Below, piece after piece: positions 4,636 to 36,413 of a DNA stretch of 64,000 nt. Every line of letters starts with the position of its first letter. The stretch's first letter is position 1. Under the pieces are notes generated by a model. It ran no database searches, had not been told where the DNA came from, and saw nothing but the letters and a program-made list of their open reading frames with translations. Source of the stretch: an uncultured Lachnospiraceae bacterium (GTDB lineage: Bacteria; Bacillota; Clostridia; Lachnospirales; Lachnospiraceae); NCBI GenBank assembly GCA_946533395.1, contig CAMNBU010000005.1:17653-81652 (forward strand), written 5' to 3'. A program made the position numbers and the translations under genes.

Positions 4636-4675
4636 CTACTGTCCGGGCCGCCCTTTATCCTGCCCCTACGGCAAT

Positions 4676-4905
4676 ATAAAAGGCGCCCCTAAGTCAGCTT
4701 AGAGACGCCTGTTGGCGCGGTACCACTCTAATTCATGCTCTGCATGCTCTCAAATACCCGTCTCGTGGGCAATACGTCTGTCCCTACTGTCATTTCAGGA
4801 AGCCGCTCCAAAGTGAGTTCACCCGGCCCCTCACACCGTCTCGCACCGACCGACGGTTCTCTGGGCATCACGACCGGACTACTGGTCTTTTTCATCGCGT
4901 TCACC
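4676..4905 (-). promoter_or_regulatory. T-box leader (Leu specifier CUC) with terminator, controlling leuA
   Basis: On the minus strand the stem I start reads GCGATGAAAAAGACCAGTAG. The specifier context is GGTGAA-CUC-A, with CUC at 4817..4815. The T-box sequence AATTAGAGTGGTACCGCGCC is at 4733..4712. A terminator hairpin (AGGCGTCTCTAAG/CTTAGGGGCGCCT) plus TTTTAT lies at 4710..4676. Confidence 0.85.
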
Positions 4906-4979: not shown

Positions 4980-5663
4980 CTACAGCCTCTCGAGAAGATC
5001 CGCCACCAGATCAGCGCTGTTTTTTATCTCATTGCTCTCGTAGGTGAGATCGTCGTCGACGGCGACGTCGTCGGCATTGTCCGAGATGACGCGAAGGATG
5101 ACGAAGGGAACGTTGTTCAGGTATGCGACCTGGGCAATGGCCGCGCCCTCCATCTCCGTGCAGTAGGCTTGAAAATTGTCGCGGATGAATTTCTTCCGCG
5201 TCTTATCGGAGATGAACTGATCTCCGCTGACCACGCGGCCGACATGGCATCTTCTTCCCGTGGCTTCGCAGGCCTCCTTCGCGGCGCTGATAAGGCGCTG
5301 GTCGGCCGTGAACGAAAACACCTCCATCCGGGGTATCTGGCCCAGCGGATAACCAAAGCCTACGGCGTCCATATCGTGCTGAACCGCATCCGACGATATC
5401 ACTACATCCCCGATCCGTATGAAGCTCTGCATGCCTCCCGCTATACCGGTGTTGATGATCACGTCGGCGCCCTTGTCACACAGTATCTGTGCGCACACAG
5501 CGGCATTCACCTTGCCGATGCCGCTCCTCACAACGCACACCGTCCTGCCGAGCAGCCTTCCGCGGCAAAACCGCATTCCTGCCCTCTCGTCTGTCTCAAG
5601 TATATCCATCTTCCCGACGAGGCTGTCCACTTCCTCGTCCATCGCTCCGATAATTCCTATCAT
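4980..5663 (-). CDS. mtnN: 5'-methylthioadenosine/S-adenosylhomocysteine nucleosidase
   Basis: MIGIIGAMDEE..., GIAGG and TEMEGAA motifs. The start is moved to the ATG at 5663, which follows AGAAAGG; the longer ORF would overlap the upstream ABC gene. Confidence 0.85.
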   Translation of the reverse strand: MIGIIGAMDEEVDSLVGKMDILETDERAGMRFCRGRLLGRTVCVVRSGIGKVNAAVCAQILCDKGADVIINTGIAGGMQSFIRIGDVVISSDAVQHDMDAVGFGYPLGQIPRMEVFSFTADQRLISAAKEACEATGRRCHVGRVVSGDQFISDKTRKKFIRDNFQAYCTEMEGAAIAQVAYLNNVPFVILRVISDNADDVAVDDDLTYESNEIKNSADLVADLLERL

Positions 5664-5688
5664 ATATTTACCTTTCTTCTTCGGATAC

Positions 5689-7620
5689 TCACGCCCCATA
5701 AGCCTCGGGTGCGCTTCCTGTGTAGAGCTGATAATATCTTCCCTTTGCGGCGATCAGCTCGTCGTGTGTGCCGCGCTCTATGATGCAGCCTTTCTCAAGG
5801 ACCATGATGCAGTCGCTGTTTCTGACGGTCGAGAGCCTGTGCGCTATGACGAAGGTCGTCCTTCCGCTCATGAGCCTGTCCATGCCCTCCTGCACGAGGC
5901 GCTCGGTCCTGGTATCGATCGAGCTGGTGGCCTCATCAAGTATCAGCACGGGCGGGTCCGCGATCGCGGCTCTGGCTATGGCAATGAGCTGTCGCTGGCC
6001 CTGCGAAAGGTTCGCGCCGTCTCCTGTGAGCATCGTATCGTAGCCCTGAGGCAGATGGCGGATGAAGCCGTCCGCGTTCGCGAGTCTGGCCGCCGCGTAG
6101 ATCTCCTCGTCTGTCGCGTCGAGCTTGCCGTAGCGGATGTTCTCCTTCACCGTGTTCGTGAACAGATGGGTCTCCTGAAGCACGACACCGAGAGAGTGCC
6201 TCAGGTCGGCCTTTTTGATCTTATTGATATTTATTCCGTCGTATCGGATCTTGCCGTCCTGAATGTCGTAGAAACGGTTTATCAGGTTGGTTATCGTGGT
6301 CTTGCCGGCGCCTGTGGAGCCTACAAAGGCGATCTTCTGGCCCGGTGTGGCGTACATCTTTATGTTATGGAGAACGATTTTCTCGGGGACGTAGCCGAAG
6401 TCCACATCGTCGAACACCACATCTCCGGTGAGGCGCTTGTACTCGGTCTCACCCGTCGCCTGATGTGTGTGCTTCCACGCCCACAGGCCGGTCTTTTTAT
6501 CGCTCTCGACGAGTGTTCCGTTTTCCTCGGATGCGCATACCAGTGTGACATAGCCCTCGTCCACCTCGGGCTTTTCATCCAGAAGCTTGAATATTCTGTC
6601 CGCTCCGGCCAGAGCCATTATCACGGAATTGAACTGCTGGCTTATCTGGTTTATGGGCATGTTGAACTGCCTTGTAAATGTCAGGAAGCTGACCAGCGCT
6701 CCTGTAGTAAAGCCGCCCACTCCGTTGATGGCAAATAATCCTCCGGCTACGGCGCAGATGACATAGCTTAAATTGCCCAGCTGCGCGTTTACGGGGCCCA
6801 TGACGTTCGCGAATTTATTGGCGTTGTTGGCGCTGTCGAAGAGCTTGTCGTTGAGCTCGTTGAAGCGGTCCATCGACTCCTGCTCGTGGCAGAATACCTT
6901 TACGACCTTCTGGCCGTCCATCATCTCCTCTATGAAGCCGTTCACAGCGCCGAGGTCCTTCTGCTGCGATACGAAATACCTTCCGGACATGGACATGCAC
7001 TTCTTCGACACCATGAATATCATGATGACCATCACGATCTCAAGCACCGTCAGCGGTACGCTGAGTATGAGCATGCTTATGAACACGCTCACGATGGTCA
7101 CTGCGGAATTGATGAACTGAGGCACGCTCTGGCTGACCATCTGCCTGAGAGTATCGATATCGTTCGTGTACATCGACATGATGTCGCCGTGCGCATGGGT
7201 ATCGAAATATCTGATCGGCAGGTTCTCCATGTGCGTGAACATGTCGTTTCGCAGGTCCCTCAGTGTGCCCTGCGTCACATTCACCATGATCCTCGCGTGT
7301 ACATACGCGGAAATGATACCGATGGCGTAGAATATCGCGACTCTGGCCATGGCCGAAAGAAGAGGACCGTAGTCCGGAAGCTCTGCTCCTATCATGGGAG
7401 CGATATATACGTCGATGAGGTCCTTGGTGAACATGGTTCCCTGCACGCTCGCGAAAACTCCCACAAATATGCATACGAGCACGATGACGCAGTGAACGGT
7501 GTAGTTTTTCAGGACATATTTCATTATACGGGCAAATATCCCCACGGGGTTCTCGAGCTTTGGCCTCGGTCCGAAGTTCAGCTGCCTTCCGGGGCCCTTT
7601 ACGGGTTTTGCTTCAGCCAT
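5689..7620 (-). CDS. ABC exporter, fused permease/ATPase (heterodimer partner 2)
   Basis: Six-TM N-terminal domain. Walker A GSTGAGKTT, signature LSQGQRQ, Walker B ILILDEATS. Confidence 0.85.
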   Translation of the reverse strand: MAEAKPVKGPGRQLNFGPRPKLENPVGIFARIMKYVLKNYTVHCVIVLVCIFVGVFASVQGTMFTKDLIDVYIAPMIGAELPDYGPLLSAMARVAIFYAIGIISAYVHARIMVNVTQGTLRDLRNDMFTHMENLPIRYFDTHAHGDIMSMYTNDIDTLRQMVSQSVPQFINSAVTIVSVFISMLILSVPLTVLEIVMVIMIFMVSKKCMSMSGRYFVSQQKDLGAVNGFIEEMMDGQKVVKVFCHEQESMDRFNELNDKLFDSANNANKFANVMGPVNAQLGNLSYVICAVAGGLFAINGVGGFTTGALVSFLTFTRQFNMPINQISQQFNSVIMALAGADRIFKLLDEKPEVDEGYVTLVCASEENGTLVESDKKTGLWAWKHTHQATGETEYKRLTGDVVFDDVDFGYVPEKIVLHNIKMYATPGQKIAFVGSTGAGKTTITNLINRFYDIQDGKIRYDGININKIKKADLRHSLGVVLQETHLFTNTVKENIRYGKLDATDEEIYAAARLANADGFIRHLPQGYDTMLTGDGANLSQGQRQLIAIARAAIADPPVLILDEATSSIDTRTERLVQEGMDRLMSGRTTFVIAHRLSTVRNSDCIMVLEKGCIIERGTHDELIAAKGRYYQLYTGSAPEAYGA

Positions 7621-18111: not shown

Positions 18112-18585
18112 TTATTTCTTGCGGCCGAAGAGCCCCTTCTTTTTCTTGGGCTCCGGCTGGGGAATGGCCCCGCCGCGGACGCTCTTGATCTCTGTGATGT
18201 AGATACCGCTGACTACGGCCTTGATCTCCTTCTTTACAGGAAGGACCTCAAATACCTTCGGCTCGCACAGAAGCGTCATGATCCTCGGACCGATCTTGGC
18301 CTTGACCACGGGCATCTTCTGCTTGCGCATGAGCTTCGGAACCTGCGCCATCACTTCATCGGGCAGCTTCGCGTCTATGAGCTTCATCACCTTCTTATCG
18401 ATGATAAGCATGGACATGACCTGGGCCATGGCGTCCATCTGCTGCTTCTGCTCGATCTGACGCTGCTGAAGCTTTCTTCCCGCGATGTATAGAATCACGA
18501 GCAGGGCAATGATTACAACAAGAACTATTATGAGCACTGTGGCCCATACAGGCAGCGCTATAAGCGCCGGCATAGAATTGACCAT
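18112..18585 (-). CDS. Single-pass membrane protein with a Lys-rich tail, function unknown
   Basis: N-terminal TM helix (LPVWATVLIIVLVVIIALLVILYI). AGGTG lies 7 nt upstream and a sigma-A-type promoter lies upstream of that. Confidence 0.6.
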   Translation of the reverse strand: MVNSMPALIALPVWATVLIIVLVVIIALLVILYIAGRKLQQRQIEQKQQMDAMAQVMSMLIIDKKVMKLIDAKLPDEVMAQVPKLMRKQKMPVVKAKIGPRIMTLLCEPKVFEVLPVKKEIKAVVSGIYITEIKSVRGGAIPQPEPKKKKGLFGRKK

Positions 18586-18678
18586 TTCAACACCTATTCG
18601 CAGGCAATGTGTCTGCCGGAGGCGTGCCTGCTGCGCCAGCGGAGGGCCCTACGGCCGGTTACTTTTTGCACTCCCGCG

Positions 18679-18707
18679 ATTATAGCAAATATCGGGACCT
18701 ATTGCAA
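18679..18707 (-). promoter_or_regulatory. Sigma-A-type promoter for the 18585 gene
   Basis: On the minus strand: TTGCAA, a 17-nt spacer, then TATAAT. Confidence 0.6.
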
Positions 18708-19686: not shown

Positions 19687-19715
19687 TTGACATAATACGC
19701 ACTATGGTATAAAAT
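19687..19715 (+). promoter_or_regulatory. Sigma-A-type promoter for tyrA (implies a ~300-nt leader)
   Basis: TTGACA, a 17-nt spacer, then TAAAAT, with TGGTATAAAAT context. Confidence 0.6.
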
Positions 19716-19776
19716 CCTCTGTTGAAAAAAACACATCAGAATCCGGTATGAACGGAGACAAGTTTGAAAGAGGATC

Positions 19777-19940
19777 GTAACTATTCAGAACCATACAGGA
19801 ATGACCAGACGAGTCATGCTTGCATGAACTCGGATGGTTATTTCTGTGTGGTTCTAATAGCAGACGTCCGTCACATGAGCAAAAACCGATGCCTTTGGCA
19901 GAGGTTTTGCGAATGGGATGGGCGGGTGCTGAATAGTTAC
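19777..19940. mobile_element. 164-bp MITE-like non-autonomous element
   Basis: Perfect 12-bp terminal inverted repeats GTAACTATTCAG / CTGAATAGTTAC. They are flanked by the 8-bp direct repeat AGAGGATC (19769..19776 and 19941..19948). The interior is non-coding with several internal hairpins. Confidence 0.7.
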
Positions 19941-19947
19941 AGAGGAT

Positions 19948-20019
19948 CTTTCAAACTTTCATAGGTACCGCGGCAGGCACGGCACCTATGGGCACCATGC
20001 CTGCGGCATAGTACACAAT
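19948..20019 (+). promoter_or_regulatory. Conserved leader module, copy A (3' arm of hairpin H0, helix P1 and helix S2), ending at the tyrA ATG
   Basis: By hand alignment, 60 of the 69 nt before the ATG are identical to 28785..28853, with no gaps. P1 is CATAGGTACC/GGCACCTATG and S2 is GCAGGCA/TGCCTGC. Confidence 0.6.
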
Positions 20020-21099
20020 ATGAAAATAGGATTTATCGGGCTCGGCCTCATCGGCGGGTCCATTGCAAAGGGCCTTAAGAAGGCCCACAGTGACATCTAC
20101 ATAATAGCTCACACCAGAAGCCGCGACAGCCTTCTGCCCGCATTAAATGACGGTGTGATCGATGAGATCGCGGAGGAGATCGACGAGGCGTTCGGAAGCT
20201 GCGACGTCATCTACCTGTGTACTCCGGTAGCCAACAACCGCCAGTTCCTGGTGCTTTTAAAGGACGTGATCTCGGAAAATACCATCATCACCGATGTCGG
20301 AAGCACGAAGGCGGATATCTGCCGCAGCGCAGAGGGGCTGGGCATGGAGAAGAATTTCTGCGGCGGCCATCCGATGGCGGGCTCTGAGAGAAGCGGTTAC
20401 GCGAACAGCTCAGACCACCTTCTCGAGAACGCGTTCTATCTCCTGACCCCCACGGAAGGCACTCCCGAAAGAGCCGTGGAGCTTCTCACATCTCTCGCAA
20501 AGGATCTCGGCTCGACAGTTAAGGTCCTCTCCGCTTCCGAGCACGACGAGACTGTGGCCGCCATCAGCCATCTGCCCCACCTCGTGGCATGCTCCCTCGT
20601 GGACGCGGTACGCGACAACGATAAGAACGGCCTGATGAAAACACTGGCCGCGGGCGGCTTCAAGGATATAACCCGTATAGCATCCTCCTCCCCCGATATG
20701 TGGGAGCAGATATGCGCAAGCAACCGCGAGCCCATCGCGGACTACATAAGGAAGCACATCGCTTCGATGGAGGCCATCCTTTCCATGGTCGAAGCAGGCG
20801 ACGGCGCCGGCATCCACGAGCTCTTCTCTGAGGCTGGCGCCTACAGAAACTCCATCACCGACAGCCTCATCGGGCCCATTGACCAGCAGTTCTACCTCTA
20901 CTGCGATCTGGTGGACAGACCCGGTGCCATCGCGGAGATCGCCGTGCTCCTTGCGACCCGCTCCATCAGTATCAAAAACATCGGTATCATCCAGAACCGC
21001 AATTCGGAGCCCGGTGCCCTGCGCATCCAGTTCTACGACAAGCGCTCGAGGGATGCCGCTGCAGCTGTACTGAAGCAGTATAATTTCCTTGCGGAATAA
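20020..21099 (+). CDS. tyrA: Prephenate dehydrogenase with a C-terminal ACT domain
   Basis: MKIGFIGLGLIGGS Rossmann start and a GGHPMAG motif. The C-terminal ACT-like segment reads DRPGAIAEIAVLLA. Confidence 0.85.
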   Translation: MKIGFIGLGLIGGSIAKGLKKAHSDIYIIAHTRSRDSLLPALNDGVIDEIAEEIDEAFGSCDVIYLCTPVANNRQFLVLLKDVISENTIITDVGSTKADICRSAEGLGMEKNFCGGHPMAGSERSGYANSSDHLLENAFYLLTPTEGTPERAVELLTSLAKDLGSTVKVLSASEHDETVAAISHLPHLVACSLVDAVRDNDKNGLMKTLAAGGFKDITRIASSSPDMWEQICASNREPIADYIRKHIASMEAILSMVEAGDGAGIHELFSEAGAYRNSITDSLIGPIDQQFYLYCDLVDRPGAIAEIAVLLATRSISIKNIGIIQNRNSEPGALRIQFYDKRSRDAAAAVLKQYNFLAE

Positions 21100-24887: not shown

Positions 24888-25592
24888 ATGAAGATATATT
24901 TGGAACCGCCCGAGGAAAAGCCCATAGAGCGGACAGAGGATATGATAGAGCGCGAGGCCGTCAGAAAGACCCTTAAGGGCGAGCGAAAAAAGCTCGCCTC
25001 CATGACCGGCCCTGAGAGGCGCGCCTATATATATACTTATTACAGGCTGCACATCATCTGCGCCGCGGCTGCCGTCATACTGATCGGTTATGTCATTTAC
25101 ATATTCGCCACCAGGCAGGAGACCGTGCTTATGGGCGTCGTTATAGGCGACGGCCTGACCGACAGCACATCCGTGGCGCAGACGATAGGCTCAGCCATAG
25201 GCACGGGCCCGCGCGAAAAAGTGGATATTCAGGACGGCATATACTTAAAGCCCGGCTATTCCACAGGAGTTAACACCGGCAATATGAGCGGCGCCACGCA
25301 GATACTCATGTACATAAGCACAAAAGAGCTGGATTTTTATGTCTGCACCGAGGAAGGGCTCGAATATATGGAGCAGAATAAGGTCTCAAAGGACCTTCGC
25401 GAATATCTGCCCGCCGATCTCGTCACGGCTCTCTCCGACAGTTTTACGCAGGACGGCCACGCCGTGGATATAAGCCCGTGGCGCGAGAAGCTCGGTCTTC
25501 ACCCGGATACGATGTATCTGGGCATCTGCGCTTTGTCGGGAAATGACGAGAATGTGATAAAGTTCGTGAGATGGCTCATCGCAGGGCAATAG
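24888..25592 (+). CDS. Single-pass membrane protein (first gene of the ECF operon), function unknown
   Basis: A charged N-terminus, one TM helix (LHIICAAAAVILIGYVIYIF) and a ~150-aa extracytoplasmic domain. Confidence 0.55.
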   Translation: MKIYLEPPEEKPIERTEDMIEREAVRKTLKGERKKLASMTGPERRAYIYTYYRLHIICAAAAVILIGYVIYIFATRQETVLMGVVIGDGLTDSTSVAQTIGSAIGTGPREKVDIQDGIYLKPGYSTGVNTGNMSGATQILMYISTKELDFYVCTEEGLEYMEQNKVSKDLREYLPADLVTALSDSFTQDGHAVDISPWREKLGLHPDTMYLGICALSGNDENVIKFVRWLIAGQ

Positions 25593-25619
25593 TTGTTTAT
25601 TCAAGAGGAGTCTACGGAT

Positions 25620-26171
25620 ATGGCTGTAACGGACGAGGAGTACTACGACCGTTTTATAAAATACCGCGATGAAGACGATCTGGCGGCTCTCCTCGCAAGG
25701 CATAGGGAGAGCCTAATGCTCTTCATAGACAGCTATGTGCACGATCTGTGCGACGCCGAGGAGCTGATGATGGACGCGTTTGCGGCTGTCGCCGCAGGGC
25801 GGACGATTTTTTCGGGGCGCAGCTCATTTAAGACATGGTTGTTTTCGATAGGCAAAAAACTGGCTCTTTCGCACATACGCGGCAAAAGGCAGTATTCTCC
25901 CCTCGACGAGAACACACCGGGTGCGCAGACTGACGCTCCCGAGCTCGAGTTTCTCAAAAAGGAGCGAAACCGGGAGCTCTACGCCGCGCTGGAGCGAATC
26001 AACGAAGACTACAGAACGATACTGATACTGCTCTACTTCGAGGGCATGGATCACGAGGAGGCCGGACGCGTGATGGGTAAGAATAAACGTCAGATCTATC
26101 ATCTGGCCGAGAGAGGAAGAAAGGCTCTTCGCGAGGAGCTGGTGAAGGTTGGGTTCGATCATTATGCCTGA
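25620..26171 (+). CDS. ECF-type RNA polymerase sigma-70 family factor
   Basis: Region 2 (FKTWLFSIGKKLALSHIR) and region 4 (YRTILILLYFEGMDHEEAGRVMG...IYHLAERGRKALR). GAGGAG lies 8 nt before the ATG at 25620. Confidence 0.8.
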   Translation: MAVTDEEYYDRFIKYRDEDDLAALLARHRESLMLFIDSYVHDLCDAEELMMDAFAAVAAGRTIFSGRSSFKTWLFSIGKKLALSHIRGKRQYSPLDENTPGAQTDAPELEFLKKERNRELYAALERINEDYRTILILLYFEGMDHEEAGRVMGKNKRQIYHLAERGRKALREELVKVGFDHYA

Positions 26172-26994
26172 TAAATATGAAACTTTATTTGGAATCATAG
26201 GGGTCATTATCGAGATAGGACCCGTAGTATTATCTCTTCTGGTCTCTCTTTGCCTGCTGCTGTGTATCATACGAGACATATCGCATGGTTCCGGCTCCAG
26301 AAAAACGATTCTCTTCGCCTTCGGCATGGCCTGTATGCTCCTTAGCAACATCTACTGGATCATATACGACATACTGCGCTCCGGACAGAGGATGCCATTT
26401 GCCGCCAATGAGATAAGTGAATGGGCTCTCTTTCTGCTGCTGGGTGCCGCCCTTTCGGCCGCTTTCCCAAAGAAAGATTCCGCGCTTGTTCAGAAGATAT
26501 TTGCCGCGGTCTTTGCCACCGCCAATACCGCCCTGTGGATCGCGTGGTCCGGCGAATGGATACAGGATGTCGTGACCGGCCTGTGTCTTTTGTATTTTCT
26601 GTGCAATATCGCGCAGGGCGCAAAGGACACGAAGGCTCTGGGACGGATACAATGGGCGGCACTTTCAGCCGCATGCGTGCTGTCGGTAACATTTCAGGCA
26701 TTATGCTTTTTCCTTCCGGAGTCATATACCGTATACAACGTGATGTCTGAACCCCTGAGTTCACTTTCTCTGTCTGCTTTCGTGCTCTATTCCTTCGTAA
26801 AGGCGCTAAAGCTCAGATTCTCGGGAGATCGCGGCAAAAGCTCCTGCTACGCGTTCATCGCCTACGCCCTCTGCTTATGCGGCATGTACATGACATCGGG
26901 GCTCTTCTATGTGGGTTTCTACATCGCAAACTCAGTGTTCACGATCACGATATACAGATCATTTGCAAAGGAGGGCGGTCATGATATACGCTGA
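26164..26994 (+). CDS. Polytopic (about 8 TM) membrane protein in the position where an anti-sigma factor is expected
   Basis: Its start overlaps the sigma gene's stop codon. I recognise no domain in it. Confidence 0.5.
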   Translation: MPDKYETLFGIIGVIIEIGPVVLSLLVSLCLLLCIIRDISHGSGSRKTILFAFGMACMLLSNIYWIIYDILRSGQRMPFAANEISEWALFLLLGAALSAAFPKKDSALVQKIFAAVFATANTALWIAWSGEWIQDVVTGLCLLYFLCNIAQGAKDTKALGRIQWAALSAACVLSVTFQALCFFLPESYTVYNVMSEPLSSLSLSAFVLYSFVKALKLRFSGDRGKSSCYAFIAYALCLCGMYMTSGLFYVGFYIANSVFTITIYRSFAKEGGHDIR

Positions 26995-27616
26995 AAATAT
27001 CCTCCTGTGCATCGCCATACCACTTTGCTGCTCACTGTTGTTTGTGAGAGGGGATGTGCGTCGTTTCGTAGGCGCATTTCTGCTGGGCATGGGTGTTTGC
27101 CTCCTGTCCGCCTACATAAGCGGCTTTATAAATATGGCCACGGGGCTCGGTTCCTCCGACACCTCCGTCTTCATCTCCCCCATAGTCGAGGAGCTTATGA
27201 AGCTCATGCCCCTTCTGTTCTTCCTGCTCATGTTTGAGCCCGAGAGCTCGGTACTGGCCAACATCGCAACCGCGATAGGCGCGGGCTTCGCGACCTTCGA
27301 AAACTGCTGCTACATCCTGAGTTCGGGGGCGGATAATCTGTCCTATGTCATGATACGAGGCATGTCCGTCGGCATCATGCACATCGTTAGCATCTTTTCC
27401 CTGGCCATGTGGTTCGACATCGCCAAGCGCCTGAAGGTGCTCTCCTTCCCCATCATCATCGGAGCCATGTCGCTGTCAATGACATTTCACGCCATCTACA
27501 ACCTTCTTGTCTGTGGAGGCGGCACTTCCGCCATCATCGGCTACCTTCTTCCTCTTTTTACCGCGATAGTTCTTGCGATCCTCTACAAGAGGCTTCAGGA
27601 AAAGCTGGTCAGATAG
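26981..27616 (+). CDS. prsW: PrsW-family intramembrane metalloprotease
   Basis: IVEELMK (EExxK), GFATFEN and HAIYN motifs. AGGAGG lies before the ATG at 26981. It overlaps the upstream gene by 14 nt. Confidence 0.7.
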   Translation: MIYAENILLCIAIPLCCSLLFVRGDVRRFVGAFLLGMGVCLLSAYISGFINMATGLGSSDTSVFISPIVEELMKLMPLLFFLLMFEPESSVLANIATAIGAGFATFENCCYILSSGADNLSYVMIRGMSVGIMHIVSIFSLAMWFDIAKRLKVLSFPIIIGAMSLSMTFHAIYNLLVCGGGTSAIIGYLLPLFTAIVLAILYKRLQEKLVR

Positions 27617-27624
27617 ATACCCAC

Positions 27625-27656
27625 ACCGCCCCGCAGGGGGCGGTCTTATTATTTTT
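27625..27656 (+). terminator. Intrinsic terminator ending the ECF/PrsW operon
   Basis: ACCGCCCC-GCAG-GGGGCGGT followed by CTTATTATTTTT. Confidence 0.75.
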
Positions 27657-27741
27657 GAAAAAAATTTATAAACCGGTGGGTAAAAACGCAAAAAGCTGCA
27701 ACTAATATACAGAAACGTATTTGCGATCGGAGGTGATCATA

Positions 27742-28080
27742 TTGAGATACACATCGGATGAGGCGCTTTCGGAGATCCTTAAGCGCTCGGAAAAGATAAG
27801 AGAAAAAAGAAGGAGACGAAACGAGAGGCTTCTCGCAGGAGCCTCGGGCATGCTGCTGATAGTACTGCTCGTATCCATAACCCTTCTGGGAGGTTACACG
27901 GTAAATCCCGCGACCGACAGCGTCATGGGATCGTTCCTGCTCTCGGCGGAGGCCGGCGGATACATACTCGTGGCGGTGCTCGCATTTGCGCTGGGCATAG
28001 CGGTCACATTCCTCTGCTTAAAGATCAGAGAGAGAAACAAAGACAATCCTCATACAAAGGAAAAGGAGGACGGCAAATGA
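27742..28080 (+). CDS. Small membrane protein (about 112 aa), function unknown
   Basis: GGAGGTG lies 6 nt before the TTG at 27742. It has a basic RRRRNER segment and then two hydrophobic helices. The stop overlaps the next start (ATGA). Confidence 0.5.
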   Translation: MRYTSDEALSEILKRSEKIREKRRRRNERLLAGASGMLLIVLLVSITLLGGYTVNPATDSVMGSFLLSAEAGGYILVAVLAFALGIAVTFLCLKIRERNKDNPHTKEKEDGK

Positions 28081-28778
28081 GGAGGATGAGCCTGCGCGGG
28101 CTGATACTCGCCGTATCGGCCGCAGCGTTTTTATCCTCCTGTTCCCCCGCAGACACGTCGTCCCCGGCAGTTAAGCCCCCGGCAGATACGGCGCCCAGCA
28201 GCTTCATCGACAAACCCCTGCTTTTGGAGGCGGCCGCAGCCTCGGTGGTAAAGCTCGAAGCTTATGATGACAACGACATCCGCATCGCTACGGGAAGCGG
28301 ATTTGCGGCATTGTCCGAAGGGGTGATCATCACCGCCTGCCATGTGGTCACGAACGCGGAGCGTATAGTAGCCACACGCGACGACGGGGAGACATTTACA
28401 CTGGGAAGGATAATCGAGGCCGACACAGAGCTGGATCTGGCCATATGTGCCCTCCCCGAGGGGGTCGGTCTCCCTCTACTGGCTGCGGCAGAAAACGAAC
28501 TGCACCGTGGTGAGCGGGTCGCGGTGATAGGAAGCCAGTTCGGGGTCTTAAATCTCATCACGCAGGGAAACTACTGCGGAACATGGAACAGTGAAGGAAA
28601 TGACTGGCTGCTGTTTACGGCTCCCGTATCGGGAGGAAGCAGCGGCGCACCGGTTTTAAACAGTCTTGGCGAGGTCATCGGAGTGGTCTCCGGTACCTAT
28701 GACAGCGGACAGAACATGAATATAGCGACTCCGATAGCGGCAGCCGCAAAACTGAATGGAGGGCAGAAGTTTGAATGA
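28077..28778 (+). CDS. Trypsin-like (S1/DegP-like, no PDZ domain) serine protease lipoprotein
   Basis: Lipobox FLSSCS. Catalytic contexts are TACHVV (His), DLAIC (Asp) and GGSSGAPV (Ser). Confidence 0.75.
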   Translation: MRRMSLRGLILAVSAAAFLSSCSPADTSSPAVKPPADTAPSSFIDKPLLLEAAAASVVKLEAYDDNDIRIATGSGFAALSEGVIITACHVVTNAERIVATRDDGETFTLGRIIEADTELDLAICALPEGVGLPLLAAAENELHRGERVAVIGSQFGVLNLITQGNYCGTWNSEGNDWLLFTAPVSGGSSGAPVLNSLGEVIGVVSGTYDSGQNMNIATPIAAAAKLNGGQKFE

Positions 28779-28853
28779 AATCATTCAAACTTTCATCGGT
28801 GCCGCGGCAGGCACGACACCGATGGGCACCATGCCTGCGGCAAGGTACAATAG
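28768..28853 (+). promoter_or_regulatory. Conserved leader module, copy B (intact H0 hairpin, P1 and S2), ending at the giant gene's ATG
   Basis: H0 is AGTTTGAATGA-AA-TCATTCAAACT and contains the protease stop codon. P1 is CATCGGTGCC/GACACCGATG and S2 is GCAGGCA/TGCCTGC. Confidence 0.6.
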
Positions 28854-31800
28854 ATGAAAGCTAACCGAAAACCAAGAGTACCCATTATCATCGCGGCAGT
28901 CGCTATCGCCGCGGCTGCAATCATCGGCCTGATAGTATTTCTTGCGTCCGGGGGCAAAAAGGACGATAAGAATATAGCTCAGGAGACGACACAGGGTTCA
29001 GAGACCGATCCGAGTAAAGAAAATGATCCGGGAGGCAACAAACCGGGCGAAGGCGACGAAGACGGCGCGTTTACAGTCAGCTTCGCCGTAAGGGAGACAG
29101 CAAGCGCTTACGAGCGAGAAAATGCCGTGCTTCCCGCCTCTGTAGCCGTAGCGCCCGGAACACAGGTGGGCCAGCTCGACATCCCCGAGTGCCCCAATAT
29201 GATGTTCCTCGCGTACAGCTATGACGCGGCAGGTATCAAGAAAGCTCAGGACACCGACCGCATCGACGGCAATATAACGCTCTATCCCTGCTTCGCGACC
29301 ATGGACGGCATGGGAAATACAGCAGGCTTTGATTATGTATCGAAGACGGATGTCGACTGCGACTACGCGATCGACATCATCACTTACGGGCTCACAGAGG
29401 ACGAGATCAGAAGTATCTTCTCGGTAGAGCGCGCCAGCATGGGCGGCGACCCCATGGGATACGACCTCATTTCCATTCGCGAAAAGGATACCGTGGAATG
29501 GCTCACCTCCTCCGGTATCAGGGAGGAGACCGCCAAGGCCGTATGGACATGCATCAAGCAGAAAGAGACCGAGGGCGCACAGCTCACGCAGCTTCTCAAT
29601 GCGCTCACATCGTCCGAAGAGCACTTCGACGAGCTCAGCCAGACTCAGATCACCGATATCGTTACCCGTTTCGCGCCCGAGGAGATCACCGGCAGCGACT
29701 ACGAGAAGGCGCCCATGATCGATGACGATATGCAGGCAGTCCTCGAGGCTCTCGACATTGACATAGCTACCGTAACTCCGGAAGCCCTCATGGAGCGCTA
29801 CGGCCTCTCTGAGGACGACAGCCTACAGCGCTTCTGGCGCGAGGACGTAGGGCTTACCGTCGAGCAGGTCCTCTTCCTTGAGGATATCGTATACGCGAGG
29901 AAGGAGATCCGCGGCGACAAGTGGCAGATCGTGCCCCGCGGCGGCGCATGGGAGGGCGGCGAAATATATTCGATCATCGCTTCCGACACTTCCCGCGCGA
30001 GATTCATCTTTAACGACGAGCCCACAGGCAGGGAGGTCGTAAAATACAACATTACCACAAGGCTCGAGGAAGTCGAGAACATAAGCATCGACCCCCGCGT
30101 GATACATCTTAATGCCGATGAGGTGGAGGGTGTCGAGTATCTCGGCCTTCTATCCCTTGAGATGGATGAAAACGGCAATATCACCGCAGACGAAAACACA
30201 GGCTCCGGTGTCATGACCTACAACGGCAGCGAGAAGATAAACGCAGGCGACACTGTGGCTGTAAACCGCGGCGCCTACGACGAGAACGGTCTCACAAGCG
30301 GTGAGGTCGCATACCTTCTCATAAAGGAGGTACAGGGCGGCGGCAAATACGCCTATGAGTACGCAAAGATAGAAAATGTCCTCTTTATAGCCGACAATAT
30401 CCCCGTAAAGGATGACGGAAGCATCGGGGACGGAACCATCACCATAGCGGCAGCCGATCTTGATTTTTCGAAGGCGGACTTCTCCTCTTTCGGACTGGAC
30501 GAAAAAACAAAACTGGATGCAGGCGACTATCTGACCTTCTACACCGGCTCCTTGGGAGGAGCGGATTACAAGGTTACCGGACACGCTGTCGTGGACTCCG
30601 TATCCGCCTCGGGCGAGTCATATACCGTCACCTACTCTTCTATCACCGAAGAGCAGCTCACGGCTCCCGAGCTTCTGCTGTACACAGAGCTTCCTCAGAT
30701 GGAATTCGAGCTCACGCAGCAGAACGAGGATGCCCTTCGCGAGCAGATCGAGAAGAATATCATGCAGAGCGGTATCGTGGAGGAGACAGAGGACTTCTTC
30801 ACCGCGCTCCTCACTGACGGCTCACTCGATTTTGACAGCTATGAGCACGGCGACGAGCTCAGAAGAATGGTGATCAACACCGACGGCGAGGATCTTACTC
30901 TTGCGGATCTGCGTCTGCTTGCGGACGGCGGCAAGGTCGAGGTCAGCGACGTTCACGTGACCTTCCTCGCGGGCATCAATCTGCAGCATTTCTCGGGCAA
31001 GGGCTTAAGAGGCGAGGCTGCGGTAACATTTACAATAAGCATCGCCATAGGCGACGCAGGATCGCTTGAGATCCAGCCGGCCATCGTATTCGAGCAGGAG
31101 TTCCTGCTCACACCTTCCGTAAAGGTGGTCCGCAACAAGAACAAGTTGGGCTTCACATCTTCACTCGATATCACCGCGTCGTTCTCCGCAGGTACCTATT
31201 CGGGTCTCGGCGTCACAGTGACTGCGCAGACCAAGGCGCCCAAGAACGGCAACGCCGACAAGGACTGGTCGGAAATGGTCGGCGGCTTCATCGATAACGG
31301 TAACGCTGACTCTCTCGAGGCGCGCCAGAAGGCAGCCCAGCTCCTTATAAAGGGCGGAGATTTCCTGCAGAAGCAGAGCGACAAGCAGAAGAAAAAGAAT
31401 CAGGGACAGGGCTTCGACTCCACCCTGACCAACGATGATCCCAACAAGACCGGTAAGGATTCGAAGCAGGATTATGTTTCACCGGGTCTCGGCGGCGACC
31501 TGCCCGACAAGTATTCGCGCATGCTCTCGAATGACGCGAAGTACATAAAGCTGGTCGATGTCGATCTGGGCAGCTTCGATATGCCCATAGACCCCGCCGG
31601 CATCATCCATGTGGGTCTCAAGATCAATTTCAACATCAGCATGAAGATCAATGCCATGATCGGCGCAGGCGTGACCTATGAGAACGCAAAATGCTACTCA
31701 TATCACTTCCGCGCGAAGATCTGGGGCGGCGGTGATGAATATTCGGAGTCTAATCTCTCCTCCTCCACAAACCGCGCCACAGTCACGGACATAAAGGAAT

Positions 31801-34800
31801 CCACCTTCCGCGCGGACTTCTACGCATTCGGTATGGTCGGTGTCCGCATGGGCGTTAGCATCGACCTGCGCGTCGGCGTATTCTCCACAGACCTCGACTC
31901 CGTGGGCGTGGTAGCAAGCGCCGGAGCATACGCGGAGCTCTACGGCTTCCTGTATGTCTACTACGAAAAGAAGGCCTCGCAGCCTGCCAAGAGCGGCGCG
32001 AGCGGTTCCCTGCTTTTTGAGGTGGGTATCTACACCGATATAAGCGTAAAGGTACAGATCGGCGCCGGCAAGGCGTCAAAGAGCTGGAGCCTGTACAGCT
32101 CGAAGCTGCCCTTCGTGCAGCTGGGCTGCGTGGAATTTCCTCTCGACTTCATAATAAAGCCTACAGATTCGAAACTGCAGGTCAAGATACCCGACGGTCA
32201 GAACACCGTAAAGCTGGATTCGTCCATATTTGAGATGAAGCTGATGGCTCTTAATTCCGGCAAGGTCGTCAATAAGAATATGGATTCAAACGCCGTTTCC
32301 GAGGACGATGCGACACCGTTTACTGCAACCATAATCACCACGGGCAATAAAGAGGATACAAACGGCCTTACATTGTCCACATCAAGAAGCTGGAAGCAGT
32401 TCAATGAAAAGCATTTCATCGTAGAGTGCTTCGATCTCACGAGCGAGAACGGTGAAAGGATCGAGGGCGCGTCTTCGTTCCAGTACCTGCCGGGTTCGAA
32501 CGAGATCTTCATCTGCCCTCTCGACAACAACAAGAACGATATATGGGGAGAGGTGGTCTTCACCTACAGAAACAACGCGTTCGGCTTCAACACCGAAAAG
32601 CTCCAGAGAACAGTAAAGGTACACTGGACAGGCGTATCCTGCACGGCAATGGTAGAGTACTACCTCGTGGATGACTCGGGGCAGCAGCTCGCGGGCACCG
32701 GCGCAGTCAGCGGATTTGACGCCATAAGATGCTACGTCGATATCGATGAGGGTCTTTGCAACAAGTTCCCCGGCTACGGTCTTTTGCATCTGGGCTACCC
32801 GGACGAGGACGATCTCCGCGATCAGTACTACACGGCAAGCAATGCCTACTCAGCGGCAAGGCGGCACGCAAACGCGCTCTCAAGCATAGCGGCCACTGCC
32901 CGCGTGGGAGACTACGTGGATGTCGAGAAGGAACTGGCTGCCGAGGAGGCTCAAAGAGAGGCCAACCGCCTGTTTGAGGTGGTCGCGGCGGTAGGCAAAT
33001 ACTACGAGCTGTACTACGAGAACAATGAAAAAGCCGTGGCAGAAGGAAAGGGCACGACCTACTTCACGATGCGCGGAAATAACACGATCGTCCGTATCTA
33101 CTACAAAAAACTGAACCGTCCCACCACGTGGACGATATACGACGACGAGGGCGAGTGGAAGTGCTCAACGGAAAGCTTCCCCATCGGTGACGGCAAATAT
33201 ACAAACAAATACTCGGATCAGGAGCTGCTGCAGAACCGCCCGATACTCGAATTCATGCCCTCGGTGCTTGAGGATTATCTGGGAGATCATTACAGCATCA
33301 AATGGTACACCGTCGATTGCGCCGACTACGGCTGGTGGTCGTATGCGCTTCTGTGGGAGGCCTCCGCAAATGCTCAGCAGATGTTAAGGGACGGCACATT
33401 CTACACGGACAGCCGTGTAAAGCCTGTAGATAAGGATACTTTGTACGACGGCACCAACGTGGCCGTCATCGGAGTGGCAACACCTGATAGATTCACGGTG
33501 CGCTGGCTGATCGAAGATGAGGCATTTGCAGTCACACAGGTCAAGTACGGCGGACGCATCAGCGTGCCCGACGGCGAGCCCAAGAAGGACGGATATACCT
33601 TCGTATCATGGATCAGCGAGGACGGCGAGGATGTGGACGGAACGCTTCGCATGCCCGGACACGATATAGAGGTCTACCCTGTATTTGCCGGCGATCCTCA
33701 CAAGGTAACATGGATATACGGTAAAAAGAGAGTGGAGACCGAGGTAACTACCGGTTCATCGATCTATGACTGCGTTCCCGAGGAGCTGCTTTCGGAGGGC
33801 TTCGTGATCTGGAGAACGCAGGAGGCAGAAGGTCAGGGCGAGATCGACCCCGATTATGATATGCCAAACTCCGACCTCACACTGTACGGGAGACCCGGCC
33901 TTGGCTTTAGCTCCATCACCTGGATGGAGGACGATGACATCATCCGCAGAGACTTTGTAGAGATCGGTACAAAGCCGGTTGCTCCCGGGCTTACGGCGAG
34001 GGAAGGCCTCGATCTCGTATGGATGATAAACGACGAGGTAATGCAATCCAACTATCTCGCATCGCGCGAGGACATATTCGCGTTCGCGTTCTGGCACAAG
34101 CACGAGTGGAGCGAGGAGACATCGTCCGTTGCAGCCACCTGTTCGGCACCGGGTCTGCACGGAACGAAGTGCTCCGTCTGCGGACTTCTCACCGAGGTCG
34201 AGGAGATACCCATTGACCCGAACGCGCACAAGTGGGTCGAGTATACCGCAAAGGAAGCCACCTGCTGCGAGAAGGGCGTGATCGGAAGACACTGCGCATG
34301 GTGCGATGCAATCGATGAAAGCTACGCTGAGGCCGTTGACATCGATCCCACAAACCACACCGGAAGGCAGGAGGTCCGCGACGCGGAGGAGCCCACCTGC
34401 AAGGCCGGCTACACAGGCGACACATACTGCGCGGACTGCGGCGAGCTGCTCTTTACCGGAGAAGCGATACCGGCGACAGGCGCTCACACCAAGACACATA
34501 TCATAAACTATAAGGAGCCCACCTGTACGGTGATAGGATACTCGGGCGACGAGGTCTGCGACAACTGCGGCATCTGCGTAAGGAAGGGCTACGGCCTGCC
34601 TACAAAGAGCCATGTGGGTGTAGTTGACGGCTCCGAGGACGCCACCTGCGTCTCTCCCGGCAAGGTCATCTGGAAATGTGAGAACTGTGACTACACATGG
34701 ACAGTTGAGTACAGCCCGATAGACCCCGAAGCACACGACTGGGACGACGGCGTGATCACAAAGGAGGCCAACTGCGGGCAGGACGGTATCATGGAATACA

Positions 34801-36413
34801 CCTGCAAGCTCTGCGGCGAAAAGAAACAGGATAAGATATCCGGTGGCGGCGAGCACGTATGGGGCGATCCGGTGAAGACCGCAGGAAGCTGCAGCAAGGA
34901 GGGCGTACTCACTTACACATGCTCAGTCTGCGGCGAGACAAAGACTCAGACCCTCAGTATGGACAAGGACAATCACCTGCATCTTGGCGCGGCAGAGACC
35001 GTAACTCCCGCTACCTGCGAGACACCGGGACAGTCAAAACGCAAGTGCTCCGACTGCGGAGAGTATGTCTACGAGACCATACCCGCAAAGGACCACGACT
35101 GGGGCACACCGACCTACACATGGTCGGATGATTACAGCACCGTTACCGCAACAGTTACATGTAAGAACGACGCAAACCACAAGAAGACAGAGACTGTCAC
35201 AACTGACAGGGCACTGATAGGCGCGGCATCCTGCGAGTCGGGCGGCAAGGCAAGATTTACGACCAAGCCGTTTACGACTACCGCACTGTTCACGCAGCAG
35301 ACAAAGGAGGCGGATATACCCGCCACCGGACACACCTGGGGCGAGCCGAGCTACACATGGTCCGCGGATTACAGCAAGGTGACGGCTACACGCACCTGTA
35401 CGGTATCGGGCTGCACCGGCAAGGAGACAGAGACTGTAAATACGACCTCTGCCGTCACCAAACCCGCCACCGCGGCATACAAGGGCGAGACGACCTACAC
35501 CGCTACATTTACAAATCCCGCATTTACGGTCCAGACGAAGACAGTCGCGAATATCGACTCGACAGACCCGAACTGGAACGCTGTAAATGTGACATGGGCA
35601 GCCGATTACAGCACAGCTACCGCGACGCGAACCAGCGCAGACGGAACGCTCACGCAGACAGAGACCAAGGCATCCACATCGTCTGTCACGGCTGCGGGAT
35701 GTGAGACCGACGGAAAGACAGTCTACACGGTAACATTTGCCAACACTGATTTCGGAACAGTTACAAAGGAAGTAGCGATACCGAAGACAGGACATGTTTG
35801 GCAGTATTCGAGGACGATAACTGAGCCTCAGCCGGATATCACATGGTCAGACCCCGATACCGGTCGCTGCAACGGATGGATTGCAGGGACCGATGAATAT
35901 ACCTGTTCTAATGGTTGCGGCAAGACAAAGACAGAGCCTAAGAAAGTTTCTATAGGGCTTGCAGGCAACGGAAATGAAGGCTGGGTAAGTGTAAACGGTA
36001 CAAATGTGACCATTGATCTGGGAGCTTTTGTAGCCGCCAATGCCGAGCATACAGACAACCTTACCATGGAGACATTCTTCAGAGAAGACCTCAGTATGAC
36101 CACCATTGACTCGCTTTTCAATCTGATGGTATCGTTATATCCTTACAGTTCTGAATACGCAGGCTGGTATACTAATTCAAATGCCTCGGTGAATGATGCG
36201 ACAAGAGCTGCTCTGTATGGTTTCTACGTTATCGACGAGGGAAGCCTGGTCTATGATGATCCGACACAGGCAACACTCGATGTAACGACATACAGCGGCT
36301 CAAAAGAGCTCACTGTGAAGATGAAATTCGTACCGAACGATACAAACACCTACGAGACTAAAAACATCACAGTCAAATTCATATTTTCGAAAACATACTG
36401 GAATGTGAATTGA
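28854..36413 (+). CDS. Giant (2,519 aa) N-terminally anchored surface protein with List-Bact-type repeats, a His/Cys3 repeat array and an unknown C-terminal domain
   Basis: N-terminal signal anchor (IIIAAVAIAAAAIIGLIVFLA). GYTFVSW...MP...VYPVF-type repeats. Eight ~41-aa H..C..CxxC repeats and three ~78-aa repeats. No LPXTG, SLH or choline-binding motif was seen. Confidence 0.8.
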   Translation: MKANRKPRVPIIIAAVAIAAAAIIGLIVFLASGGKKDDKNIAQETTQGSETDPSKENDPGGNKPGEGDEDGAFTVSFAVRETASAYERENAVLPASVAVAPGTQVGQLDIPECPNMMFLAYSYDAAGIKKAQDTDRIDGNITLYPCFATMDGMGNTAGFDYVSKTDVDCDYAIDIITYGLTEDEIRSIFSVERASMGGDPMGYDLISIREKDTVEWLTSSGIREETAKAVWTCIKQKETEGAQLTQLLNALTSSEEHFDELSQTQITDIVTRFAPEEITGSDYEKAPMIDDDMQAVLEALDIDIATVTPEALMERYGLSEDDSLQRFWREDVGLTVEQVLFLEDIVYARKEIRGDKWQIVPRGGAWEGGEIYSIIASDTSRARFIFNDEPTGREVVKYNITTRLEEVENISIDPRVIHLNADEVEGVEYLGLLSLEMDENGNITADENTGSGVMTYNGSEKINAGDTVAVNRGAYDENGLTSGEVAYLLIKEVQGGGKYAYEYAKIENVLFIADNIPVKDDGSIGDGTITIAAADLDFSKADFSSFGLDEKTKLDAGDYLTFYTGSLGGADYKVTGHAVVDSVSASGESYTVTYSSITEEQLTAPELLLYTELPQMEFELTQQNEDALREQIEKNIMQSGIVEETEDFFTALLTDGSLDFDSYEHGDELRRMVINTDGEDLTLADLRLLADGGKVEVSDVHVTFLAGINLQHFSGKGLRGEAAVTFTISIAIGDAGSLEIQPAIVFEQEFLLTPSVKVVRNKNKLGFTSSLDITASFSAGTYSGLGVTVTAQTKAPKNGNADKDWSEMVGGFIDNGNADSLEARQKAAQLLIKGGDFLQKQSDKQKKKNQGQGFDSTLTNDDPNKTGKDSKQDYVSPGLGGDLPDKYSRMLSNDAKYIKLVDVDLGSFDMPIDPAGIIHVGLKINFNISMKINAMIGAGVTYENAKCYSYHFRAKIWGGGDEYSESNLSSSTNRATVTDIKESTFRADFYAFGMVGVRMGVSIDLRVGVFSTDLDSVGVVASAGAYAELYGFLYVYYEKKASQPAKSGASGSLLFEVGIYTDISVKVQIGAGKASKSWSLYSSKLPFVQLGCVEFPLDFIIKPTDSKLQVKIPDGQNTVKLDSSIFEMKLMALNSGKVVNKNMDSNAVSEDDATPFTATIITTGNKEDTNGLTLSTSRSWKQFNEKHFIVECFDLTSENGERIEGASSFQYLPGSNEIFICPLDNNKNDIWGEVVFTYRNNAFGFNTEKLQRTVKVHWTGVSCTAMVEYYLVDDSGQQLAGTGAVSGFDAIRCYVDIDEGLCNKFPGYGLLHLGYPDEDDLRDQYYTASNAYSAARRHANALSSIAATARVGDYVDVEKELAAEEAQREANRLFEVVAAVGKYYELYYENNEKAVAEGKGTTYFTMRGNNTIVRIYYKKLNRPTTWTIYDDEGEWKCSTESFPIGDGKYTNKYSDQELLQNRPILEFMPSVLEDYLGDHYSIKWYTVDCADYGWWSYALLWEASANAQQMLRDGTFYTDSRVKPVDKDTLYDGTNVAVIGVATPDRFTVRWLIEDEAFAVTQVKYGGRISVPDGEPKKDGYTFVSWISEDGEDVDGTLRMPGHDIEVYPVFAGDPHKVTWIYGKKRVETEVTTGSSIYDCVPEELLSEGFVIWRTQEAEGQGEIDPDYDMPNSDLTLYGRPGLGFSSITWMEDDDIIRRDFVEIGTKPVAPGLTAREGLDLVWMINDEVMQSNYLASREDIFAFAFWHKHEWSEETSSVAATCSAPGLHGTKCSVCGLLTEVEEIPIDPNAHKWVEYTAKEATCCEKGVIGRHCAWCDAIDESYAEAVDIDPTNHTGRQEVRDAEEPTCKAGYTGDTYCADCGELLFTGEAIPATGAHTKTHIINYKEPTCTVIGYSGDEVCDNCGICVRKGYGLPTKSHVGVVDGSEDATCVSPGKVIWKCENCDYTWTVEYSPIDPEAHDWDDGVITKEANCGQDGIMEYTCKLCGEKKQDKISGGGEHVWGDPVKTAGSCSKEGVLTYTCSVCGETKTQTLSMDKDNHLHLGAAETVTPATCETPGQSKRKCSDCGEYVYETIPAKDHDWGTPTYTWSDDYSTVTATVTCKNDANHKKTETVTTDRALIGAASCESGGKARFTTKPFTTTALFTQQTKEADIPATGHTWGEPSYTWSADYSKVTATRTCTVSGCTGKETETVNTTSAVTKPATAAYKGETTYTATFTNPAFTVQTKTVANIDSTDPNWNAVNVTWAADYSTATATRTSADGTLTQTETKASTSSVTAAGCETDGKTVYTVTFANTDFGTVTKEVAIPKTGHVWQYSRTITEPQPDITWSDPDTGRCNGWIAGTDEYTCSNGCGKTKTEPKKVSIGLAGNGNEGWVSVNGTNVTIDLGAFVAANAEHTDNLTMETFFREDLSMTTIDSLFNLMVSLYPYSSEYAGWYTNSNASVNDATRAALYGFYVIDEGSLVYDDPTQATLDVTTYSGSKELTVKMKFVPNDTNTYETKNITVKFIFSKTYWNVN

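Follow-up and report, generated by a model that had tools for sequence, protein, structure and literature searches.

A short structured module that precedes two unrelated genes in the window, the whole 64,000-nt stretch of DNA from an uncultured Lachnospiraceae bacterium analyzed here, belongs to a dispersed family. Pattern scans and two covariance models together recovered at least 21 copies at no fewer than 19 distinct gene contexts. With middling confidence, we interpret these copies as an uncatalogued family of cis-acting structured leaders, ~70 to 100 nt long, that carry a ribosome-binding site (RBS) and are dispersed through rumen Lachnospiraceae. The module is absent from Rfam 15 and is thus a candidate new class for structured-RNA catalogues; we found no description of a motif of this kind in the literature on Lachnospiraceae or the rumen. 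If the interpretation is correct, rumen Lachnospiraceae would own a portable cassette of natural origin for translation initiation, one that takes the place of the native RBS in core genes such as valS, ileS, parB, trpC, and tyrA. Such a cassette would be a natural counterpart of engineered synthetic RBS insulators and possibly a route to common post-transcriptional control of unrelated genes.

Copies of the module in the window

A first-pass annotation of the window had pointed out a conserved block before tyrA (copy A) and before a giant gene (copy B). Direct alignment reproduces the identity it had counted by hand, 60 of 69 nt without gaps before the ATGs at 20020 and 28854, and a longer stretch compared gives 64 of 75. 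The annotation had called the module conserved, and a search with a 39-nt core pattern, allowing up to three mismatches, bears this out: only two sites in the window match, those of copies A and B, where shuffled sequences are expected to yield none. The ORF downstream of copy A encodes prephenate dehydrogenase (tyrA) according to Pfam, and that downstream of copy B, starting at ATG 28854, encodes 2519 aa. The parts of both copies, comprising the helices H0, P1, and S2 and a Shine–Dalgarno (SD) position, are listed below together with those of a third, diverged copy (copy C).

Copy A
19687..19715, + strand: promoter-like site, TTGACA-17-TAAAAT, called by consensus match only (11 of 12 positions)
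19754..19757, + strand: SD-like GGAG immediately 5′ of H0, interpreted as a remnant of an older RBS
19761..19771, + strand: H0 5′ arm, AGTTTGAAAGA, split from the 3′ arm by the insert
19777..19940, + strand: MITE-like insert of 164 nt in the H0 loop, outside the module proper
19947..19957, + strand: H0 3′ arm, TCTTTCAAACT
19960-19969 with 19981-19990, + strand: P1 arms, CATAGGTACC with GGCACCTATG
19970-19980, + strand: P1 loop of 11 nt, holding the S2 5′ arm GCAGGCA at 19973-19979
19998-20004, + strand: S2 3′ arm, TGCCTGC
20008..20022, + strand: SD position (ATAG in place of the family's AAGG), spacer, and tyrA start, with ATG at 20020-20022

Copy B
28758..28859, + strand: whole module
28758-28763, + strand: SD-like GGAGGG
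28768-28778 with 28781-28791, + strand: H0, AGTTTGAATGA-AA-TCATTCAAACT
28776-28778, + strand: TGA stop of the upstream peptidase gene, within the H0 5′ arm
28794-28803 with 28815-28824, + strand: P1 arms, CATCGGTGCC with GACACCGATG
28807-28813 with 28832-28838, + strand: S2 arms, GCAGGCA with TGCCTGC
28842-28845, + strand: weak SD, AAGG, 8 nt before the ATG at 28854

Copy C
18679..18707, − strand: promoter-like site, TTGCAA-17-TATAAT with TG, called by consensus match only
18580..18660, − strand: diverged third copy, scoring 55.5 bits with model R2
− strand, within copy C: P1 arms of other sequence, CTCCGCTGGC with GCCTCCGGCAG
18625-18631 with 18600-18606, − strand: S2 arms, GCAGGCA with TGCCTGC
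18593-18595, − strand: SD, AGG
18583-18585, − strand: ATG of the downstream ORF, encoding a 157-aa membrane protein

The P1 arms of copies A and B are present as annotated, including the A-T to C-G double change between them, and so are the S2 arms, the 5′ one lying inside the P1 loop. The annotation had missed one mismatch in the P1 of each copy. That of copy A, A19967, is strain-specific: four further assemblies of the species read G here and hence form a perfect 10-bp P1. The insert in copy A has 12-nt terminal inverted repeats and is flanked by an 8-bp direct repeat, AGAGGATC, at 19769-19776 and 19941-19948. Deleting it together with one repeat copy restores the H0 palindrome that the annotation had proposed, AGTTTGAAAGA-GGA-TCTTTCAAACT, and the compensatory A-T to T-A swap that it described in H0 is seen in copy B.

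The promoter-like site at 19687..19715 lies upstream of copy A, so the whole module and the insert would form part of the tyrA 5′ UTR. At copy C, a good sigma-70-like match stands only a few bases 5′ of the module, which would therefore start near the 5′ end of the mRNA. Model R1 also matched the window at 4617-4713 (− strand); this is a T-box terminator and not a module copy. In a scan of the window at Rfam gathering thresholds, the sole match was a T-box at 4698-4904. The annotation had recognized no named leader or riboswitch class in the module, and Rfam 15 likewise offers none: scans of copies A, B, and L016 at E values up to 10 returned only miRNA-type chance hairpins.

The module family at start codons

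The annotation had treated the module as a device common to two genes. Copy C already makes a third in the window, and the module proves to be widely dispersed. We scanned a genome collection with an invariant 19-mer, obtaining 28 matches of which 8 are true copies, all from rumen Lachnospiraceae metagenome-assembled genomes (MAGs); the remainder are chance matches in high-GC genomes, many of them within one coding motif. A metagenome scan with the pattern GCNGCAGGCRC-N17-TGCCTGCG gave matches that, as listed, are mostly chance hits from high-GC DNA, with at least six further copies among the matches listed. A first covariance model, trained on 10 copies and covering H0 and P1, added copy C and a second L008 copy, in the parA/parB spacer. 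A second covariance model, spanning P1 to the ATG, added two diverged copies:

L173 17677-17746: diverged copy in the trpD-trpC spacer
L166 2334-2399: diverged copy before a Band_7 gene

A match at L086 7508-7550 lies within coding sequence and was rejected as chance. All 12 matches in a scan of viral contigs are also chance, with no real copy among them, and BLAST against phage and plasmid collections did not find the module. All 21 copies found come from rumen Lachnospiraceae MAGs or metagenome contigs with host DNA of 35 to 53% GC, and the module core is near-identical although the host loci span this range. Examples of MAGs with the module are GCA_017529675.1, RUG14788, and RUI091. We saw one to three copies per assembly, figures that refer to the sequences scanned.

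The first-pass annotation had cautioned that an ordinary REP/BIME-type repeat would be scattered in random positions and orientations. The module is not scattered: 21 of the 21 copies found are on the sense strand directly 5′ of a genuine ATG, ending 13 to 15 nt before it, and these ATGs open canonical, normal-looking N termini. The downstream genes are as unrelated as the annotation had judged from two of them, with no common function across 19 contexts by Pfam and gene tables. They encode prephenate dehydrogenase, ValS, IleS, ParB, TrpC (IGPS), a threonine-aldolase-like lyase, and a guanylate-kinase-like protein; SSF and ammonium transporters, an ABC exporter, and YitT; a GH5 cellulase lipoprotein, a SASA esterase, a Cache-domain sensor, a TPR protein, and a Band_7 protein; and the giant protein downstream of copy B.

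On its 5′ side, each copy is bordered by a T-box terminator, an upstream stop codon, or an RBS that looks older. The L166 module (5909-6006) is flanked by a T-box scored by Rfam (5570-5883) and the valS ATG at 6001, and other copies are intercistronic (parA-parB, trpD-trpC, and the peptidase gene-giant gene spacer). These placements argue that the module is a transcribed leader and not a promoter. A sigma-54 promoter (GG-N10-GC, with GGCAC-N5-CTGC inside L3/S2) was rejected in its own right, as the GG is changed to GT, AG, GA, or TG in at least six copies, and it is also contradicted by the location between the T-box terminator and valS. We likewise discarded a sigma-70 leaderless promoter (TACAAT just before the ATG), for which the spacing is too short and whose hexamer falls in the variable spacer, and a T-box leader, since RF00230 does not match the module and the complete T-box of L166 lies upstream of it.

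Comparison of orthologous loci indicates that the module is not a conserved gene-specific regulator. Homologous loci lacking the element were something that the annotation had said would count against its reading, and several orthologues do lack it. The tyrA gene of the nearest relative retrieved (61% identity) has an ordinary promoter and a GAGG SD and no module. At valS, the module is present at 90% protein identity and missing at 87, 84, and 80%; the 87% relative, with a long leader of another kind and an extended N terminus, offers no clean empty site. A sister species of the L008/L173 organism has no module between parA and parB, whose stop and start codons, respectively, overlap (TAATG); the corresponding spacer of L173 is 89 nt long and bears the module. 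The threonine aldolase gene of the sister species reads ACGGAGGAAAATTT directly followed by ATG, versus AGAGGAGAAATTT, the module, and then ATG in L173, and the native RBS of the sister species without the module is GGAGGAAAATTT-ATG. Such differences between close relatives indicate that the module is gained and lost at individual genes.

We saw no terminal inverted repeats on the module, and repeats between its left flank and its right tail are no better than in cross-copy controls (permutation p = 0.63); apparent target-site duplications, namely AAGGTA (L016), AAAGTA (L020), AGGG (L082), and CACAAT (L102), show no excess by permutation. Spread may have proceeded by duplication and insertion before start codons, with gain and loss between close relatives. 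To our knowledge, no mechanism inserts DNA exactly before start codons, which counts against the leader reading and raises the question of how a DNA segment comes to be placed so precisely.

RNA structure, translation signals, and alternative readings

The P1 and H0 helices proposed in the annotation show compensatory changes across the family. P1 is a GC-rich helix of 10 bp that directly abuts H0 and closes an 11-nt loop. In an alignment of 20 sequences, 8 of its 10 pairs are changed on both sides and 88.5% of cells are paired, a degree of covariation reached by 0 of 500 shuffles; controls with the partner slid were 23 to 44% paired. Even diverged arms wholly different in sequence are still paired (CTCGATGCTG with CAGCATCGAG). 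H0 is an optional, AU-rich helix of 11 to 13 bp with double changes at 4 of 12 pairs, absent or swapped for another hairpin in five copies. Folds of individual copies give it 16 sense-strand G·U pairs, equivalent to A·C mismatches on the other strand, and these point to sense-strand RNA. The same count for P1, 7 G·U versus 11 A·C with 7 of the 11 A·C at one conserved C·A position, is not decisive.

S2 behaves differently in that its arms, GCAGGCA and UGCCUGC, are invariant in 18 of the 21 copies found and show next to no covariation. The variants are an A-to-G change giving G·U (L016), a C-to-U change giving G·U (L173c), and a double change from A-U to G-C (L166b). The arms are complementary across copies, with two end pairs broken, in the most diverged ones. 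An H-type pseudoknot of P1 and S2 is plausible and sterically reasonable with loops of ~3, 2, and 7 nt, and the invariance of S2 could instead reflect sequence-specific recognition without pairing. In most canonical copies, folds of the P1 type and of the extended S2 type differ little in nested free energy. A helix of GUGCC with GGUAC that would sequester the SD is 87% paired, indistinguishable from shuffled controls, and nested fold predictions for the diverged copies are no better than those for shuffles.

UGCCUGC ends ~3 nt before the SD. The annotation had found no strong SD at either gene, and neither indeed has a canonical one (GGAG or GGAGG precedes most other ORFs in the window), but copy B does have the weak AAGG. 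Across the family, 19 of the 21 copies found have AAGG, AGGG, or TAGG at a fixed site 7 to 8 nt ahead of the ATG, followed by a variable A/T-rich spacer of ~8 nt. The constant offset to the start codon is thus explained by the module ending in a weak SD of its own ~8 nt before the ATG, and we infer that the module supplies the RBS of its downstream gene. An SD-like motif (GGAG, GAGG, or AAGG) also stands just 5′ of H0 in 14 of 18 copies with no gene to serve; comparison with relatives explains it as stranded, since the module sits between the older RBS and the ATG. Copy A counts against an RBS-bearing cassette, as it has ATAG in place of AAGG in all five assemblies and so lacks the weak SD, yet tyrA is presumably expressed. 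For annotation, the module accounts for the apparent absence of an SD at these genes and warns against calling a spurious ORF of ~28 codons through it.

Its position and anatomy suggest that the module would influence translation initiation in cis, as a self-folding RBS cassette shielding the start region from the context upstream. In a putative open state, P1 and S2 would form the H-type pseudoknot and leave the SD free. In a closed state, S2 would be extended and the 3′ end of the P1 5′ arm (GUGCC) would pair with GGUAC, covering the GG of the SD. The near-invariant S2 and loop nucleotides may offer a recognition surface for a putative trans-acting factor.

The main rival to such a structured leader is a selfish, non-autonomous mobile DNA element (MITE, REP, or PATE-like), with hairpins read as single-stranded DNA by a transposase and with survival owed to the replacement SD, without any regulatory role. 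We regard it as possible but doubtful. Near-identical copies dispersed over genomes of 35 to 53% GC, presence and absence at orthologous loci, and the older SD left upstream all speak for it, and hairpins with conserved loops bring to mind the termini of IS200/IS605 and REP elements. Random transposition with later purging would, however, also leave neutral 3′ or antisense copies, whereas all 21 copies found are in sense and start-proximal; moreover, the 16 G·U pairs of H0 fit RNA and not DNA, no terminal inverted repeats were seen, the flanks show no duplication beyond generic SD-likeness (p = 0.63), the phage, plasmid, and viral-contig searches yielded no real copy, and no transposase gene was seen beside any copy. 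A separate, tentative reading, which we would assign only a minor share of the probability, is a new kind of start-codon-homing, always-transcribed, non-autonomous cassette that settles exactly between the SD and the ATG, swaps the RBS, and presents its loop/tail pseudoknot as a handle for a dedicated trans-acting protein. That protein might be copying machinery, for example a reverse transcriptase or recombinase working on sense RNA or single-stranded DNA, or else a global translational regulator; in the latter case, new genes would be captured into the regulon of the regulator.

The conservation of S2 and the loop invites other explanations. An operator for a dedicated RNA-binding protein or sRNA, with GCAGGCA/UGCCUGC and the loop bases linking unrelated genes into a post-transcriptional regulon, would fit the invariance of the S2 arms and P1 loop beside a P1 stem whose sequence changes freely, the abutment on the SD, and the diversity of targets, as in CsrA-type regulons. 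We nonetheless judge it unlikely, because the module contains no GGA-type or other known protein-binding motif and the regulon would have to turn over very fast between close relatives; it also overlaps with the RBS-cassette reading. Cleavage of polycistronic or leader RNA shortly before the RBS, by a self-cleaving ribozyme or at a specific endonuclease processing site, seems quite improbable: several copies per genome beside unrelated genes are a habit of twister, hammerhead, and pistol ribozymes, several copies of the module are intercistronic, and a small hairpin with a possible pseudoknot and invariant unpaired bases would suit catalysis, but no ribozyme family in Rfam 15 matched at E values up to 10 and the P3 and P4 helices of HDV-like ribozymes are missing from the topology. 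We consider a metabolite or ion riboswitch, with an H-type pseudoknot aptamer that occludes the SD, very improbable, given that the downstream genes in 19 contexts have no pathway in common, that close orthologues do without the module, that at valS it follows a complete T-box, and that no Rfam riboswitch matched; the pseudoknot-capable fold next to the SD and the highly conserved loop on a covarying stem are what it has in its favor. Scarcely credible is a leader peptide of ~28 codons (MKVxFQTFIGAAAGTxPMGTMPAARY), initiated at a TTG in H0 and with its translation coupled to that of the main gene. Many copies do have an SD-like motif 5 to 8 nt before the TTG, a combination that seemed persuasive in about half of all copies, and in copy B and L020 the stop shares bases with the main ATG (ATGA). 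The in-frame start is nevertheless missing in 8 of 18 copies, an in-frame stop lies inside the L082 module, the frame of copy A differs, the stops lie anywhere from 37 nt upstream to 73 nt downstream of the ATG, and substitutions fall at all codon positions and mirror-symmetrically across P1, which fits base pairing and not coding.

Comparison with known systems

Several known systems resemble the module in part. Like mycobacterial MIRUs, its copies are short dispersed repeats in intercistronic or leader positions that are oriented with the operon, abut the start codon, and supply translation signals. MIRUs reportedly act by way of small ORFs overlapping the stop and start codons on either side, and they occur in tandem arrays, whereas the module occurs as single copies, its uORF reading fails, and its conserved feature is an RNA hairpin with complementary loop and tail. 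With REP/BIME, ERIC, Correia, and BOX repeats and MITEs, the module shares multi-copy palindromes that are co-transcribed, are gained and lost, and can alter mRNA fate. REP/BIME, ERIC, Correia, and BOX repeats take either orientation and lie mainly 3′ of genes or at any place within spacers, and MITEs have terminal inverted repeats and target duplications; the module differs from REP/BIME and MITEs in that 21 of 21 copies found are in sense, 13 to 15 nt from the ATG, with neither kind of repeat. The insert in copy A, unlike the module, does have the inverted repeats and direct repeat of a MITE.

In the H-type pseudoknots next to the SD of rpsO/S15, T4 gene 32, SAM-II, and preQ1-II, as in the module, a hairpin loop can pair 5′ of the SD, an anatomy by which folding or factor binding could control access of the 30S subunit. 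Those operators are tied to one gene or pathway and conserved at orthologous loci; the module, in contrast, precedes unrelated genes, is not conserved at orthologous loci, and has a second helix that is only a candidate. The attC sites of integrons, such as the Vibrio cholerae repeats, are similar imperfect palindromes upstream of unrelated starts in one orientation. They belong to a cassette array beside an integrase and have GTTRRRY core sites. The module loci examined have no cassette array or integrase context, the genes served (valS, ileS, parB, trpC, and tyrA) are core genes separated by kilobases, with intervening genes on both strands, and the G·U pairs of the sense strand speak for RNA. 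The module thus fails at least one defining feature of each system compared, and we file it among the dispersed structured intergenic repeats.

Module copies and neighbouring genes in the window

The module, a structured leader of ~70–100 nt lying directly 5' of start codons and built from an optional hairpin H0, a hairpin P1, and a possible loop-to-tail pairing (S2), has a further, diverged copy in the window that was absent from the first-pass annotation.

18580-18660 (-): module copy C, diverged
24888-36413 (+): same-strand cluster ending in the giant 2519-aa gene

Copy C precedes a 157-aa membrane-protein ORF (18112-18585, minus strand), and a strong promoter-like site lies just upstream of it at 18679-18707. 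The giant gene, preceded by copy B, encodes a protein with no Pfam match on record. Upstream of it on the same strand are two ORFs without a Pfam match, followed by genes for an ECF-type sigma factor, a PrsW-family protease, and a trypsin-like peptidase. For the sigma factor, the L029 gene table lists Sigma70_r2/r4_2, and the TGA stop of the peptidase gene is contained in H0 of copy B.

Other leaders and chance matches

4698-4904 (-): T-box leader in the window, 114.9 bits, above the Rfam gathering threshold
L167, about 5810-6000: GC-rich, hairpin-prone stretch of ~190 nt in an 87%-identical valS relative
L020, 5859-5973 (+): FMN riboswitch, 106.9 bits, above the Rfam gathering threshold

The ORF at 2935-4635 (-) lies downstream of the window T-box; a weak match to the first module model, the covariance model built from ten copies, at 4617-4713 is false and corresponds to the terminator of this T-box. 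In the valS relative, the ~190-nt stretch is flanked by a T-box terminator on one side and a strong AAGGAGG Shine–Dalgarno sequence on the other, and the ValS N terminus is 10 residues longer; at the corresponding position before valS, this relative carries a leader insertion unlike the module. The FMN riboswitch, ~3.8 kb from the module copy of its locus, is unrelated to the module.

Chance occurrences of the invariant 19-mer core, GGGCACCATGCCTGCGGCA, are also present in genomes of proteobacteria and acidobacteria (L001, L002, L005, L006, and L009–L012), where they fall in one conserved coding motif, TGGGGGCACCATGCCTGCGGCAC (W-G-H-H-A-C-G-T). Pattern scans with the core call for caution.

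The insert in copy A

19777-19940: 164-nt insert that interrupts copy A (before tyrA) at its H0 loop, with a direct repeat on either side (19769-19776 and 19941-19948)

Three assemblies from other strains are broken within this insert. It has inverted ends of 12 nt, a target duplication of 8 bp, and a predicted fold of −95 kcal/mol (z = −13.9), and it matches the Rfam Clostridiales-1 RNA below threshold (30.3 bits; gathering score 48). Together, these features suggest that Clostridiales-1-like RNAs may be MITEs.
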